Shown: piece by piece, positions 1,437 to 63,845 of the stretch
Layout: each line of letters opens with the position of its first letter
How positions within the stretch are numbered: the first letter of the stretch is position 1
DNA from: Eledone cirrhosa
Lineage: Eukaryota
Assembly: GCA_964016885.1 (NCBI GenBank)
Contig: OZ024742.1
Location: 339,326,001 to 339,390,000 of the forward strand
Length of the DNA stretch: 64,000 nt
Reading direction: 5' to 3'
Notes under the pieces: generated by a model
The model's input: the letters and a program-made list of their open reading frames with translations, nothing else
What the model was told of the DNA's origin: nothing
Databases searched by the model: none
Program-made: the position numbers and the translations under genes

Positions 1437-2158
1437 AATAAATAAAAAAATAAACAGACTAAATAAAGATGGCGTAGGCATACAATACAACGGGAGGAAA
1501 CATAATAGCACCCCTGACGATGTTGCAGATGTGCAACGAAAGAACTTTGTTAGACTATATATATGTGTTTGTGTCTATATTATATCTGTATTTTTGACCG
1601 TTGATCAGTCAATGGTAAACATTGAGGACCGAATAAAAAAAAAAGAATTAAATTAACCGATATAAAAGACACAGAAGCGCAAACCAACCAAACAGTGAGT
1701 GTGTTCTGTTATTAATTCTGGCAATACTATTACACAAATATGACCCTCCCCAAGTATAACAATATCTGTTTCGACACGATTTCATATCAAAAACCTCGCA
1801 AAACTAATTCATCGCCGTTATATATATATGCATATATATATATATATATGGACATATATACATATATATATGCGTGTGTGTATGTTTGTATATATATATA
1901 TATATATATATATATATATATATATATATATATATATATATATATATATATATATATATATATGTATATATGTGTATGACAGTGTGCATTACTAAAAGTA
2001 ATTAAAGATTTAAAACATGAACTAATGATAATAAAACTGAATTCTACGTGGTGAACCAAATATAGAAATATGTGTTTTGCCTGATTAAAGAAAAAGAGAG
2101 AAAGAGAATTTTAAACACACATTTTTCTTCAATTCCGCATTTACACAACAGTTAGTTC

Positions 2159-2216
2159 ACCATACTGAGAACAATTGTTTCACCTTCGCGGATCTTCAGC
2201 TCGGGATGTGTATGGT
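2159..2216 (-). ncRNA. Minimal type I hammerhead ribozyme motif
   Basis: gag-CTGAAGA-tcc gcgaa ggt-GAAAC-aatt-GTT-ctc; distal stem accatac/gtatggt; palindromic CAATTG stem III. Confidence 0.7.
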
Positions 2217-2642
2217 TATAGGAACAGGAACGACAACCGTACGAACGCGCATGCGCAGAAACTCGGTCACTTCACACAGGCAATACTAGACTGCGTGCGG
2301 TAGGTGTAAGGGAGATAACTGCGAAAGTCCGGAAAGTGTTTAGGTTGAAAATAGAATAACAAAATAAAAATAAAATTACGAAGAATCAGTCCGGAGCCTT
2401 GTAGTTATGCAATAGATGTTTGGTGACGTGTGGACAACGTGTGAAAAATTCACTTCTCGTGTTTAGGCAATCACTATTGCGTAATCTCTTTAGGATAGTT
2501 ATTGGTTCGTCAATACATAAGCCACACGTCGGATTTCCCCTTGCATATGGCTTGGACTTAGTGATGGCTTTCCATTGAATGGAGTAGCTTATACTTGAGT
2601 ACTTGAAGGACCATGCGTGGCTCGCGAGTTTCGTGGATAAAC

Positions 2643-3103
2643 CCCCACCAGGGTGCTCTTGTCGTAAGCCTGAAGCTTGCCTCCTTCAACAGCAATGCAA
2701 CACACCAGCTGTAATCTATGAAGCTGTGGTTACTTCCAACCGACCAAACGAACCACAGGAGGTCAAATCCTATGTGGGCATGGCGGAGGGCCGATTCAAG
2801 GAGCGTTTCCTGAACCACCAGTCTACCTTCAGATACCCGGACAGACGTTCATCCACGAAACTCGCGAGCCACGTATTGTCCCTTAAGGACTCAAGTATAG
2901 ACTACTCCATTCAATGGAAAGCCATCACTAAGTCCAAGCCATACGCAAGGGGAAATCCGACGTGTGGCTTATGTATTGACGAACGAATAATTATCCTAAA
3001 GAGATTACGCAATAGTGATTGCCTAAACACGAGAAGTGAATTTTTCACACGTTGTCCACACGTCACCAAACATCTATTGAATAACTACAAGGCTCCGGAC
3101 TGA
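2643..3103 (+). pseudogene. PLE GIY-YIG endonuclease domain (5'-truncated)
   Basis: CSCR..ACLL..C..VIYEA..YVG..FKERF.NH..STKLASHV..W..CGLC..E..LNTRSEFF..CPH. The first ~13 aa of ORF 2603 come from the inverted arm. Confidence 0.85.
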
Positions 3104-3272
3104 TTCTTCGTAATTTTATTTTAATTTTTTAATTTTATTTTCAACCTAAAAACTTTCTGGACTTTCGCAGTTATCTCCCTTACGCCTCCCGCACGCAATC
3201 TAGTATTACCTCTGTGAAGTGACCGAGTTTCTGCGCATGCGCGTTTGTACGGTTGTCCTTCCTATTCCTATA

Positions 3273-3331
3273 ACCATACACATCCCGAGCTGAAGATCCG
3301 CGAAGGTGAAACAATTGTTTCTCGGTCTGGT
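3273..3331 (+). ncRNA. Minimal type I hammerhead ribozyme motif (mirror copy, 1-nt insertion at the cleavage site)
   Basis: ccgag-CTGAAGA(3290)-tccgcgaaggt-GAAAC-aatt-GTT-t-ctcgg. Confidence 0.6.
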
Positions 3332-3527
3332 GAACTAACTGTTGTGTAACCACTTCTACCTAACTCGTCCTATGGACTGAGTGCTCTACCACTACCCATA
3401 TTACCTTCCAGTGTTCCACCACTATATATATATATATATAATATATATATATATATATATATATATATATATATATATATATATATATATATATATATAT
3501 ATATATATATATATATATATATATATA

Positions 3528-3639
3528 GGAACCAGTAAGACCCCGACAGCTGAGCTCAAGCCGTTTCGACGGCTAATTCTGGACTAAATGAAAATTTATC
3601 CTGGTATTTAAATAGCCGATCTTCTCAAGGGGTAATTCC
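3528..3639 (-). ncRNA. Type I hammerhead ribozyme, U3-A8 core variant
   Basis: Reverse complement of 4393-4504. Confidence 0.75.
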
Positions 3640-60698: not shown

Positions 60699-61432
60699 TT
60701 AAGTTATTTTATAGTGAGAGAATTTAGCTTTTAGTTTGTGGTTGCAGTATAATGATCGTTCAATTCTATCGTTAAGTAGTTTGTTTTTGGATTTTAATAT
60801 GTAAAATAGCTCAAGGTTACATAACCTGCAGTACTTCAATCCACTCCGATATGCACTTGCGCTGGAAAGTATATCCCATTTTAAGATGAACTGTTGGTTG
60901 TGTTCACGGAGTTGCCAGGTCTTGTTGGCGAGCGTGGTCACAAAACGGTGATTCGGATGTTTGATTGAGAATCGATGACGGTACCAGCGAGATTTAAATG
61001 ATGTGGTGGTAGATCCGATATAATACCATTTCTGGTCGTTCGATTCAACCGTGCATTGGTAAACAATGTTGGACTTTAGGCATTCATTCTTCAATGGACA
61101 TCTTTCAGGTAGATGGCAGTTACATTCTTTGTTGTGGGTAGCGGGTATACCATGGATAGGTTGTGATAGCGGTACAGGTGGGTTGTGTAATACCCGTCTC
61201 CCATTTAGTGGTTGGGAGGCAGATATTGCGTTCTGCCCATCTGTTACTAAAATGTTTTGTTTTGTAGAGTTGTTTAATTGCCTTAAGTTAAGTTTTTTTA
61301 TGTATGCTTCAAGGTTTGGTGCCGTGGAGTATGATAGTCTAATAGTTCGGTATTTAAATTAAGAGTTACGTCCAGAAAGTTTACTACTTTAAGATTGTAT
61401 TCGTATGTTATTTTTAGACCCAGTTCACTAAA
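60699..61432 (-). pseudogene. PLE ORF fragment: RT end piece joined to linker + GIY-YIG
   Basis: FSELGLKITYEYNLKVVNFLDVTLNLNT | IRLSYS..CNC..CPL..CL..IVYQC..YIGST..FKSRW..H..C.LC..E..LLN..C.H. Confidence 0.88.
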
Positions 61433-61528
61433 AGTGTAGTAATTAACCATTACTACATCTTGGATAATCCTATACCTAATAATCGCCTCCTACACAGTTG
61501 AGCAACCACACCGACACACGGCATTAAT

Positions 61529-62785
61529 ATGGAAAGGCATCATATAGGTATGTCACTTAAAAACATACCTATACCTAACAAAAGGGAATATATTCTTAGT
61601 ATGATTACAATCTTAAAGTAGTAAACTTTCTGGACGTAACTCTTAATTTAAATACCGGACAGATACGACCCTTCCACAAGGTAAATGAGAACCTTACGTA
61701 TATTAACTTTAACTCTAACCACCCACTCTCCATGATCAAATCAGTTCCCCGGAGTATTTCTCTTAGAATCTCTCGCCTATCGTCTAACTCCGATATTTTT
61801 AGTGAACACGCTGAATACTACAATAATACATTAGGGAATGCTGACCACCGGGATACAATAGAATACATCGATAGGAATTTCCATAACACACATAGCTCTA
61901 CACGAAATCAAGGAATACGTAACCGGGGGACTAAAACACAAGCACACACACACAGTACTACCAGACATACTAATAATAGAAGATCACCACCAAATAAATC
62001 ACGTTGTAGAAAGTATATCTGGTACAATCCTATTTTTAATGCCTCGATTAGTACAAAACTATCTCTTTCATTCTTTAAGTTAATCAACAAACACTTCCCT
62101 AGTTCCCATAAATACAGCAAAATTCTGAACTCTAAAACTATTAGACTATCATACTCCACGGCACCAAACCTTGAAGCATACATAAAAAAAACTTAACTTA
62201 AGGCAATTAAACAACTCTACAAAACAAAACATTTTAGTAACAGATGGGCAGAACGCAATATCTGCCTCCCAACCACTAAATGGGAGACGGGTATTACACA
62301 ACCCACCTGTACCGCTATCACAACCTATCCATGGTATACCCGCTACCCACAACAAAGAATGTAACTGCCATCTACCTGAAAGATGTCCATTGAAGAATGA
62401 ATGCCTAAAGTCCAACATTGTTTACCAATGCACGGTTGAATCGAACGACCAGAAATGGTATTATATCGGATCTACCACCACATCATTTAAATCTCGCTGG
62501 TACCGTCATCGATTCTCAATCAAACATCCGAATCACCGTTTTGTGACCACGCTCGCCAACAAGACCTGGCAACTCCGTGAACACAACCAACAGTTCACCT
62601 TAAAATGGGATATACTTTCCAGCGCAAGTGCATATTGGAGTGGATTGAAGTACTGCAGGTTATGTAACCTTGAGCTCTTTTACATATTAAAATCCCAAAA
62701 CAAACTACTTAACGATAGAATTGAACGATCATTATACTGCAACCACAAACTAAAAGCTAAATTCTCTCACTATAAAATAACTTAA
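61529..62785 (+). pseudogene. PLE ORF with most of the RT deleted
   Basis: MERHHIGMSLKNIPIPNKREYILSMI fused at ~61607 to NLKVVNFLDVTL..SNHP..RISRLSS..IWYNP..IRLSYS; A8 frameshift at ~62190; then GIY-YIG. Confidence 0.88.
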
Positions 62786-63265
62786 CATTCGAACCCGTAA
62801 CTATAACACCACTTTCTAGCTAACAACCTTCTCTTCCCCCCACATACAAGACAATACACTGTTTATCACTATACATGGTAACTCAGTGCAATTCCTAGAT
62901 TACTACTACAAACCCAAAGTTCACTCACCACACATACTTTGTCTGTCCCCTCTCTACCTATCTCTCTCTACATCCATTACACACTCTCTCTCTCACCTTT
63001 GACCTACCTCCCTCTCAACATCTATGAACCTGCTCTCTGGGGCAATAAATAATTCCGACCTTAACTATCAACGCATCTCTCCAAAAGTAACCAGTATAAT
63101 AAAACCCCTACCATAACATTTTGATTAAGATATCTACAAGCCACTCTCTCCTACTTCTCCAACCCCTGCATATCTTTCTTTCTCTCTCCCTCTTCCCTAC
63201 TTTTCTCTCTTCCTTTTCTACTCCATCTTCCCCAACAACCCCACTTAAGGGTATTTACATTGTAC

Positions 63266-63400
63266 ATTTACCATCCTGCTCTGAGGAAACAGTGGTCACA
63301 GCATTGGATATTCGAGTTCTGCAAGTACTTGTGAATTTGCACGTAGCATAACTAGGCTGCAGTACCACCGTGGAAACACTTGTAAGCACACGGAATAAAT
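63266..63400 (+). ncRNA. Type I hammerhead motif with long branched stem II
   Basis: tgct-CTGAGGA(63281)-a-acagtggt...accaccgt-g-GAAAC-actt-GTA(63382-63384)-agca; distal attta/taaat. Confidence 0.65.
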
Positions 63401-63438
63401 TACCTTTTTATGATGTCTACCTGTTATTATTCATTCTT

Positions 63439-63845
63439 TATATATATATATATATATATGTATGTATATATATATATATATATATATATATATATGTATG
63501 TATATATACATACATATATATATATATATATATATATATATATATATATATATATATATATATATATACATACATATATATTTATATATATATATATATA
63601 TATATATATATATATACATATATACATACATATATATATACATGCATACATATATATATATATATACATATATATATATATACATATATATATATATATA
63701 CATACACATATATATATATATATATATATATATATATATATATATATATATATATATACATACATATATATATGTATATATATATATATATATATATATA
63801 TATACATACATATATATATGTATATATATATATATATATATATAT
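63439..63845. repeat. Compound (TA)n/(TACA) microsatellite
   Basis: Direct observation. Confidence 0.95.

Follow-up and report, generated by a model that had tools for sequence, protein, structure and literature searches.

Head-to-head Penelope-like insertions with hammerhead motifs in the genome of Eledone cirrhosa and their likely origin by dual priming on one RNA

Fold-backs and hammerhead motifs of the window

The window, by which we designate the whole 64,000-nucleotide stretch of Eledone cirrhosa contig OZ024742.1 that was analysed, contains seven inverted repeats, every one of which was recovered where the original prediction had put it. Unit 1 (2141-3422; arms 2141-2642 and 2847-3349, 94% identical; tail 3350-3422) is followed by (TA)n, and unit 2 (3525-4584; arms 3525-3989 and 4043-4507, 100% identical; tail 4508-4584), a long-class insertion of the young family 2, has (TA)n at both flanks. 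Next come unit 3 (6867-7196; tail 6867-6961, arms 6962-7196, 95% identical over 6966-7192), unit 4 (9127-9519; tail 9127-9205, arms 9206-9519, 95% identical), whose right end adjoins (CT)n, and unit 5 (9661-9917; arms 9661-9856, 80% identical; tail from 9857). The old unit 6 (58640-59035; arms 58640-58989, 74% identical; tail 58990-59035) precedes unit 7 (59899-63444; tail 59899-60037, arms 60038-61347 and 62136-63444, 99% identical over 60044-61347 and 62136-63438), in which the spacer between the arms is rearranged. A possible tie of 63888-63926 to an element of the adjoining stretch was read by eye. We also found an eighth fold-back (5024-5227), absent from the original prediction, which is a mini hairpin of family 2 with its tail, belongs to the class bounded by the preferred 5' end described below (the wall) and holds only the 3' half of the ribozyme; its segment 5088-5227 matches positions 4444-4583 of unit 2.

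All seven units carry a one-sided tail of 45-140 nt, on the right in units 1, 2, 5 and 6 and on the left in units 3, 4 and 7, which lies outside the coordinates first given for them, and once this tail is counted each unit touches (TA)n at one end at least. The claim that the units have no primary sequence in common also holds, as no pairwise DNA similarity was detected among the seven at E<0.05; in the same comparison units 1 and 7 are the only pair matching as protein.

Outward-facing hammerhead motifs, the central element of the original prediction, are present in all seven fold-backs, those of unit 1 being identified by eye only, as were four single ribozyme-like motifs. A type I descriptor of our own that accepts long inserts in stem II gave 9 motifs in the window, against a mean of 0.3 (maximum 2) in 30 shuffles. 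In unit 2 the motif is found in the right arm (4404-4487, plus strand) and as a mirror copy in the left arm (3545-3628, minus strand); the same descriptor places motifs in unit 3 (7017-7067, minus), unit 6 (58902-58971, plus) and unit 7 (60098-60201, minus; 63281-63384, plus). Unit 5 has a whole motif on the minus strand (9702-9759) and the 3' half only on the plus strand. The first version of the descriptor left out units 1, 2 and 7 and the second left out units 4 and 1, both arms of unit 4 (9257-9336, minus; 9391-9468, plus) being scored by the earlier version. Rfam misses these motifs, no hammerhead being scored among 131 matches at E≤1, and the Hammerhead_1 search first suggested would have failed to detect them.

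The plus-strand motif of unit 2 has a U3-A8 core, a 5-bp stem I, a long stem II insert and a 17-nt stem-loop III, with the predicted cut after 4487; its predicted fold is a three-way junction (z −0.13), and the stem III of family 2 is long enough to fold by itself. By sequence, the motifs have the type I hammerhead core and three predicted helices, and their stem II inserts reach about 80 nt. For family 5, covariation over 28 of the 37 ribozymes found (one per locus, the long-insert one dropped) was no higher than in shuffles.

The predicted orientation is equally clear, as motifs within fold-backs face outward in a ratio of 22:1 after removal of 5 overlapping-row repeats (27:1 raw); for a family 7 pattern, the first 100 matches listed include 21 outward and 2 inward cases of neighbours on opposite strands no more than 5 kb apart. 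The window is typical of the genome for motif content, since 37 motifs were counted in 20 stretches of 10 kb placed at round coordinates, whereas 5 shuffles had 2-4. The estimated density, around 170 motifs per Mb with our own descriptor, is far higher than the thousands per genome of a published hammerhead descriptor survey, and fold-back arms of any family make up about 11% of the 200 kb sampled.

Open reading frames and identity of the elements

Following the arms into other loci tied five of the seven families to RT/GIY-YIG open reading frames (ORFs). In family 1 the ORF ends about 210 nt upstream of the ribozyme in 12/12 family loci examined, and in the window its GIY-YIG end (2588-3103, plus) shows CxCX5C linker, CxxC and CxH motifs. 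Family 2 has a full 721-aa ORF at locus L031, located between direct repeats 3593 nt apart, to which a Pfam search assigned no family. Family 3 is joined in L468 and L483 to a GIY-YIG ORF located about 1.85 kb upstream, and for family 4 a decayed ORF lies in L481 between two 72-85% related pseudo-LTRs (pLTRs) 4.4 kb apart. Unit 7 itself retains RT thumb and GIY-YIG remnants in two frames (61600-62785, plus), the GIY-YIG match (E 4e-4) being under Pfam's cut-off. No ORF tie was found for family 5 among 62 loci examined or for family 6 among 19. These ties support one of the two origins first offered for the non-coding units, namely that they are minimal integration products of several Penelope-like families.

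[quoted passage not shown] The change of DKG to DKT, a Hydra feature, is present in L031, L034 and L481 and in 112 of the 120 best homologues. The CxCX5C linker, as well as the CxxC and CxH motifs that surround the conserved E and N, with the CCHH motif absent, are shared by units 1 and 7, L031, L034 and L481 (read by eye in the first four) and by 113 and 115 of the 120 best homologues, respectively. At the N-terminal RWK position L031 and L034 have RWR; RWK is found in 84/120 and either form in 112/120 of these homologues. One homologue cluster includes jellyfish proteins. On motifs and (TA)n targets, we assign the elements to the Hydra type of EN+ Penelope-like elements.

Small fold-backs at TA-rich sites could also be MITEs of a TA-targeting DNA transposon, carrying hammerhead-like motifs by chance. 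This reading is refuted by the ORF ties of five families, and the tandem pLTR copies and the motif counts far above shuffles argue in the same direction; in fact, instead of the constant length, constant inner joint and equal terminal inverted repeats of a MITE or a mobile hairpin, we found unequal ends, a one-sided tail and variable inner joints, and we give this explanation practically no credence.

Joints, ends and arm pairing in family 2

Family 2, with at least 21,988 tails in the genome, was sampled at 90 position-ordered loci, 67 of which have the inverted arm. Clearly, these insertions favour (TA)n, which flanks 65/67 outer ends and 87/90 tails, against a background of 13%. Two 3' ends are fixed, bounding the interval 4506-4586 (plus), and may correspond to RT start sites 1 (4506) and 2 (about 4586). 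The joints, on the other hand, are 62 distinct ones among the 67 fold-backs, and in families 3, 4 and 5 no two joints read by eye were alike. Among 36 exactly mapped joints, 22 have an overlap of 0-2 nt and 14 a short filler. Either arm may be the longer, the tail-less arm often being so, and the 5' ends of mini hairpins are equal in 8/36, which is near chance.

Arm 5' ends accumulate at what we call the wall (4441-4453, plus), a site 11-13 nt wide within the stem II insert of the ribozyme, at which 49/90 tail arms and 49/67 inverted arms end and contigs from unassembled runs show an approximately nine-fold step in depth. Initiator-like A residues are found at 4443 and 4447, and 29 nt upstream of the latter lies a TATA-like box (4418-4427, plus). 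Of 45 arm ends in family 3, 15 lie between −59 and −68 relative to the core, the modal end being preceded at 31 nt by a TATA box, and in family 4, 10/48 fall at −30 to −36; a sharp wall was not seen in family 7. The sequence context makes it likely that the wall is the 5' end of the RNA, and the single-base fillers at the wall, all 4 of which are G or C as for a cap-derived extra G, point the same way, albeit in few cases. The wall could alternatively be the edge of a protein-protected RNA after nuclease trimming, or a second cleavage site, which would account for the width over which ends spread, for the template 3' ends of jump joints, scattered over positions 58-442 past the unit junction, and for the behaviour of long copies: under a simple promoter model full-length copies should stop at the upstream wall, but 0/35 ORF-continuing copies with a visible end do so, contrary to that prediction. 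Given the TATA-like boxes and the fillers, we hold this alternative to be unlikely, albeit of appreciable weight. A splice junction was rejected, the ends being heterogeneous and joined straight to the partner arm. Among 11 jump joints in mini-tandems, the restart point is the wall in 6 and the predicted cut in 3.

The second origin first offered, a non-autonomous class of ribozyme hairpins transcribed whole and re-inserted as a unit by Penelope-like proteins, seemed to be favoured by whole-hairpin queries, which in families 4 and 5 recover numerous hairpins of almost equal size, and by the lack of ORF ties in families 5 and 6. However, such queries select the query's own size, and position-ordered sampling overturned the notion of fixed-size units: the hairpin is not mobilised as a unit, since its joints are nearly all unique. 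Hairpin size is set by the wall, no sequence upstream of which is present in mini hairpins, and the longer arm can be either one, so that we regard the hairpin class as very improbable.

At the predicted scissile bond of family 2 we counted 60 arm starts (89 minus 29 one-base indels), against 9 and 16 at two controls, or 45 against 6 and 6 when overlap-ambiguous and indel rows are also removed, these being absolute counts, at a cut site that opens a G run, with controls that exclude 3490, 3492 and 3493. Possible slippage led us to disregard 28 copies that have an extra G at the cut. Untemplated A/T-rich filler stands exactly at the bond in 6/17 rows (5 loci), against 0/14 and 0/6 control rows; at 3 of these 5 loci the partner arm stops either at the cut or slightly inside it, and at one the two arms share identical filler, which also fits one cDNA copied from the other. 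In one insertion, found once in the genome, a jump joint leading to the cut site occurs three times, spread over both arms. As arm starts and untemplated filler concentrate at the predicted scissile bond, the hammerhead of family 2 likely cuts in vivo. The signal was not replicated in family 7, where the bond and the two controls had 1 start each and filler was absent.

The two arms of a hairpin are not independent. When one arm extends past the wall, its partner stops at the wall in 0/18 cases, against 49/67 unselected (Fisher p 8e-9); this coupling rules out RT stalling at the wall and disfavours a retrovirus-like strong-stop transfer, which predicts long-plus-wall pairs. Similarly, when the tail arm starts at the cut, the partner reaches past the cut in 2/13, against 65/67. 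Arms differ by 1.3 of 52 nt within a hairpin and by 3.2 between loci, and 51 variants are common to both arms; edited templates were discarded, A-to-G being absent among these variants (52 columns only). The joints suggest that both arms were likely copied from one RNA molecule, and the coupling at wall and cut argues for dual priming on that RNA. The arm similarity, the shared variants and the locus with identical filler would also fit an origin in which only one arm is reverse-transcribed and the other is a snap-back DNA copy of the first cDNA, or later conversion between arms. Nevertheless, 47/51 of the variants common to both arms are recurrent subfamily marks, the arm without a tail frequently exceeds the other in length, and three loci combine an arm stopping at the cut with one that runs across it through filler, which renders such an origin improbable.

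An assembly artefact was also considered, since inverted repeats adjacent to microsatellites are hard to assemble and long-read fold-back chimeras could mimic them. However, arms differ by 0-26%, biological ends are fixed and flanks unique; moreover, contigs from unassembled runs, which may derive from the same individual, repeat the ends of the assembly, one strand-switch joint and the jumps back to the wall. We thus consider an artefact to have next to no likelihood.

Candidate mechanism and relation to known systems

Our preferred reading, to which we assign a probability of roughly 0.8, is that every fold-back represents a separate head-to-head insertion, truncated at the 5' end, of a Hydra-type Penelope-like element into (TA)n, in which both nicked strands likely prime on one RNA at two fixed sites and the far cDNA ends are joined. 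Its directly observed part comprises several unrelated families, ORF ties for five of them, joints that are unique, a pair of fixed 3' ends together with the one-sided tail, the outward orientation and the (TA)n flanks. Both nicked target strands would prime reverse transcription on the same RNA, which would be the template of both arms; the two fixed 3' ends would be the RT start sites, as in the in vitro result for the lizard element, and each cDNA would reach the 5' end of the RNA or stop at random before the two are joined at their far ends. The commonest 5' end would be the transcription start of the pLTR and, as in family 2 it would lie within the stem II insert, the products there would be mini hairpins that carry half a ribozyme and are dead ends. 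The hammerhead may have cut a minority of the family 2 templates, and the resulting arms would stop at the scissile bond or pass it by way of untemplated filler; long and tandem copies would come from RNAs continuous across the wall, either read-through or ribozyme-bounded and possibly circular.

The predicted folds of four units have 84-96% of bases paired, and a long dsRNA hairpin from read-through is plausible. An unusually high dsRNA potential and hyper-editing have been reported for octopus, the available parts of that account leaving the repeat unnamed (PMC5625713), and the fold-backs are a candidate source. Joining all of this, family 2 may offer the first molecule-by-molecule in vivo record of Penelope-like transposition, in which an RT dimer would prime both strands on one RNA, the hammerhead would cut that RNA in cells with RT jumping the cut, and transcription would start inside the element's own ribozyme so that only the downstream copy cleaves; some hundreds of thousands of self-contained hairpins would be the by-product, and a candidate main source of dsRNA for editing and silencing. 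We put this joint reading forward tentatively, leaning slightly against accepting it whole.

The fold-back layout itself is already published: in the portions available of Craig et al. 2021 (PMC8557442), the Hydra clade of C-terminal EN+ elements shares with ours DKT, the CxCX5C linker, CxxC/CxH and the C-terminal GIY-YIG, the pLTR hammerhead, (TA)n targets and partial tandems, and, in the Fig. 2 legend, the inverted 5'-truncated copy with a one-sided tail. There, the formation of tandem and inverted structures and the microsatellite bias are called open, and the role of the hammerhead unclear. In the literature covered, which leaves aside subscription papers and the supplements of PMC8557442, we met no genomic ends or filler at a Penelope-like hammerhead cut and no arm coupling.

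Penelope of Drosophila virilis (Schostak et al. 2008, PMC2377424), as described in the accessible text, likewise starts within the upstream pLTR, requires the partial tandem for promoter activity and has inverted terminal repeats of variable size, but its promoter is TATA-less and upstream of an intron, whereas here a TATA-like box precedes the wall, within the ribozyme of family 2. Non-LTR retrozymes (PMC7229834; bioRxiv 10.64898/2026.07.22.740005) are, in the parts consulted, also non-coding, PLE-derived and endowed with a type I hammerhead. They form head-to-tail tandems with a whole ribozyme per unit (PMC7229834), whereas the units studied here are without exception head-to-head, have joints of their own and in many cases hold only half a ribozyme; retrozyme-type repeats with a whole hammerhead per unit were not encountered among them, and a few head-to-tail arrays exist in the genome (L139, L366, L428, L430).

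The closest mechanistic parallel is Poseidon PAc of Anolis (Frangieh et al. 2024, PMC11167929), for which the sections available describe a pair of neighbouring internal start sites for RT that delimit the tail, cutting and extension of both target strands, an AT-rich target and a predicted dimer. The origin of the inverted copy is not addressed in those sections; cleavage was dispensable in vitro, no RNA reads ended at the cut and no in vivo sign of cleavage was found, whereas genomic copies of family 2 do end, or carry filler, at the predicted cut. What is new is that family 2 preserves a record of the mechanism in its copy ends, arm coupling and filler, and this young family offers exact coordinates for the putative RT start sites, RNA 5' end and cut, together with an intact ORF for reconstitution.

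Fold-backs in the window and their coding relatives

All seven inverted repeats of the original prediction were recovered by self-comparison of the window, with arm identities of 74–100%, and comparison of the units revealed no DNA similarity among them, in agreement with the absence of common primary sequence it had described. Its unit limits placed the inverted repeats correctly but left outside, in every unit, a tail of 45–140 nt, a 3' extension of one arm only that terminates in (TA)n or a related microsatellite. With tails included, units 1 to 7, after which families 1 to 7 are named, span 2141–3422, 3525–4584, 6867–7196, 9127–9519, 9661–9917, 58640–59035 and 59899–63444; an eighth, smaller fold-back (5024–5227) belongs to the family of unit 2. 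The spacer of unit 7 (61345–61660) is rearranged: it contains an inverted RT piece, part of the tail, and the RT thumb fused to an ORF start.

The hammerhead motifs were borne out by our own descriptor, in which stem II inserts are allowed (nine in the window versus 0.3 in shuffles), but not by Rfam, whose search of the window scored no hammerhead. The unit 4 hammerhead was scored by an earlier descriptor version, and those of unit 1 were identified by eye only. Outside the seven units, single hammerhead-like motifs were scored by descriptor at 10580–10613 (+) and seen by eye at ~42437–42480 (+), 43484–43552 (−, within a small fold-back at 43358–43600), 57847–57880 (+) and 58400–58435 (−); a further hammerhead (63888–63926, −) directly follows the rightmost (TA)n run.

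Near-identical copies of the unit 2 right arm occur at other places in the genome, and in one other stretch (L031) this arm forms a pseudo-LTR pair, 3593 nt apart, flanking a 721-aa RT and GIY-YIG ORF. Such ORF links were obtained for families 1 (12/12 loci), 2, 3 (two loci, via a 1.85-kb 3' region), 4 (via a related tandem copy) and 7, which supports the option of Penelope-like element (PLE) integration products raised by the original prediction; none was found for families 5 and 6 in the loci examined. Craig et al. (PMC8557442) give DKT, CxCX5C, CxxC and CxH, with no CCHH, as marks of the Hydra clade, and these marks are present across the ORFs of L031 and L034 and the ORF remnants that units 1 and 7 retain. 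Among the best 120 of 2175 homologues, DKT occurs in 112 and the CxCX5C linker in 113. Judged by these motifs, the families would belong to Hydra. L034, the next 10 kb, contains a 2.7-kb inverted repeat (99.9%) together with an open Hydra-type ORF of 832 aa (L034:1378–3873). On the other side, at a distance of 10 kb to the left, L035:2–1141 holds a frame for RT and GIY-YIG that belongs to another Penelope-like type.

The window also holds a 27-kb satellite (11947–39182; 22/44-bp unit, ~89% matches), a SINE-like repeat of 190 bp that occurs nine times, in both orientations (199–388, 4699–4879, 8369–8520, 11010–11195, 39260–39400, 40067–40151, 41208–41407, 57109–57305 and 59395–59568) and two tandem non-LTR retrotransposon copies (43691–49072 and 49230–54941; 79% alike across 4.2 kb), whose frames resemble endonuclease and RT and which, judged by their motifs, may be of the Tx1/L1 type.

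Abundance and independent insertion

Within its 3.0-Gb genome the window is unexceptional. Twenty 10-kb samples placed at round coordinates, most of them in the largest contigs, yielded 37 hammerhead motifs versus 2–4 in shuffles (~170 per Mb), and inverted-repeat arms of any family occupy 22,280 of 200,000 bases. The outward orientation also holds there, with 22 hammerheads outward and 1 inward in 14 distinct motif-bearing fold-backs; for family 7, neighbour pairs among the first 100 matches listed are 21 outward and 2 inward.

A mobile hairpin of fixed size was considered and rejected: whole-hairpin queries return similar sizes, but such queries select for size. Unselected samples were thus drawn by position from exact tail matches (at least 21,988 for family 2, 566 for family 5 and 79 for family 4) or, for family 7, from 2302 arm-pattern matches. 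An adjoining inverted arm is present in 67 of the first 90 family 2 loci, and these 67 fold-backs have 62 distinct joints, which speaks against the proposal that the hairpin is mobilised as a unit. Two arms were observed in 22/30 family 5 and 19/29 family 4 loci, no two joints in these samples being alike by reading. In family 2, (TA)n is found at 65/67 outer ends and 87/90 tails, the background being 13%. We consider the fold-backs to be independent PLE insertions, with a probability of roughly 0.93.

Arm ends at the wall and at the predicted ribozyme cut

In family 2, 49/90 tail arms and 49/67 inverted arms have their 5' ends within 4441–4453 (+), the wall, and the preceding 60 nt contain none of these ends. 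The wall falls within the ribozyme's stem II insert, and a TATA-like box is positioned 29 nt upstream of it. Contigs of unassembled runs, possibly from the assembly's own individual, show a nine-fold depth step at the wall, depth not being copy number, and both fixed 3' ends reappear in them. In family 3 (28 loci picked by likeness of the 3' 110 nt), 15/45 ends fall between −59 and −68 relative to the core, of which three likely represent one duplicated event, and a TATA box lies 31 nt upstream of the modal end; in family 4, 10/48 fall at −30 to −36, and families 5 and 7 have no sharp wall in the arm-end samples. In a second organism, sequenced in another study (run X5, 13 contigs, versus L031:3760–4400), a family 2 relative has a tail followed by (TA)n and a contig that terminates at the wall.

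When one family 2 arm passes the wall, its partner ends there in 0/18 cases, so that the wall is a property of the template and not of each cDNA. Template jumping at the RNA 5' end is known from R2 work; in 11 mini-tandems the cDNA jump starts at the wall in 6, at the cut in 3 and elsewhere in 2, landing 58–442 nt past the unit junction, and by analogy these origins would be as expected for an RNA 5' end. Against a simple promoter model, of the 35 copies that continue into the ORF and whose end is visible, none stops at the upstream wall (70 loci, minus 20 reaching the sequence edge, 12 mini copies and 3 unclear); long copies therefore likely use other RNAs. On balance, we lean towards the wall being a transcription start.

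The descriptor predicts cleavage after 4487 (+). Counting, genome-wide, tail arms with all five upstream bases unlike the element, 89 start at the cut, or 60 (including four neighbouring duplicates and three filler loci) once 28 with one extra G and one with a lost C are subtracted, versus 9 three bases upstream and 16 three bases downstream. Untemplated A/T-rich filler of 5–16 nt sits exactly at the cut in 6/17 gap matches, from 5 loci; local duplications account for the remaining 11 and for all gap matches at control positions (filler in 0/14 and 0/6). At three of the filler loci the cut is crossed by the long arm, whereas its partner stops there or slightly inside; a fourth has identical filler in both arms and the fifth is without partner. 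A partner arm is present in 13 of 22 truncations at the cut and passes the cut in 2. At L283 one jump joint to the cut, unique in the genome to this locus, occurs three times, in both arms. The family 2 hammerhead was very probably cut in vivo. Family 7, which is less numerous and has a short stem III that may need a dimer (PMC4209133), has no cut-start or filler signal, and the claim is therefore confined to one family. As regards the dsRNA of the original prediction, predicted folds of read-through hairpins from four units pair 84–96% of bases, which would likely silence the ribozyme; no A-to-G change occurs among the arm-shared variants of family 2.

Small tandem arrays of family 2 pieces (L366:1479–3600, 299 bp x7; L428:2507–2734, 24 bp x5; L430:555–792, 66 bp; L376:1406–1882, 226 bp) repeat identical joints, two at the cut site, from circles, repeated jumps or DNA slippage. 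At L139:1–2420 a hammerhead-bearing unit of 592 bp is repeated head-to-tail and accompanied by an inverted copy, a retrozyme-like arrangement.

Insertion mechanism and known systems

Frangieh et al. (PMC11167929) showed in vitro that a Poseidon protein cleaves both target strands, extends them, and begins at two internal RNA sites bounding the tail. Were one RT start site assigned to each target strand, two arms with 3' ends outward, a one-sided tail, flanking (TA)n and an inner joint unique to each insertion would follow with no further assumption; the inner joints have 0–2 nt overlap or short filler. The arm-coupling data add that both arms would be copied from one RNA, which we regard as probable.

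What makes these data valuable is family 2, young and very large: its joints yield exact predictions for two open questions, the formation of the inverted copy and in vivo cleavage by the ribozyme. An annotation of Octopus vulgaris includes Penelope-like elements, with hammerheads and Hydra unmentioned (PMC13282606). The architecture itself is a known outcome of PLE insertion: the inverted 5'-truncated copy with a one-sided tail is already described in PMC8557442, and dual minimal hammerheads on opposite strands in PMC4209133.
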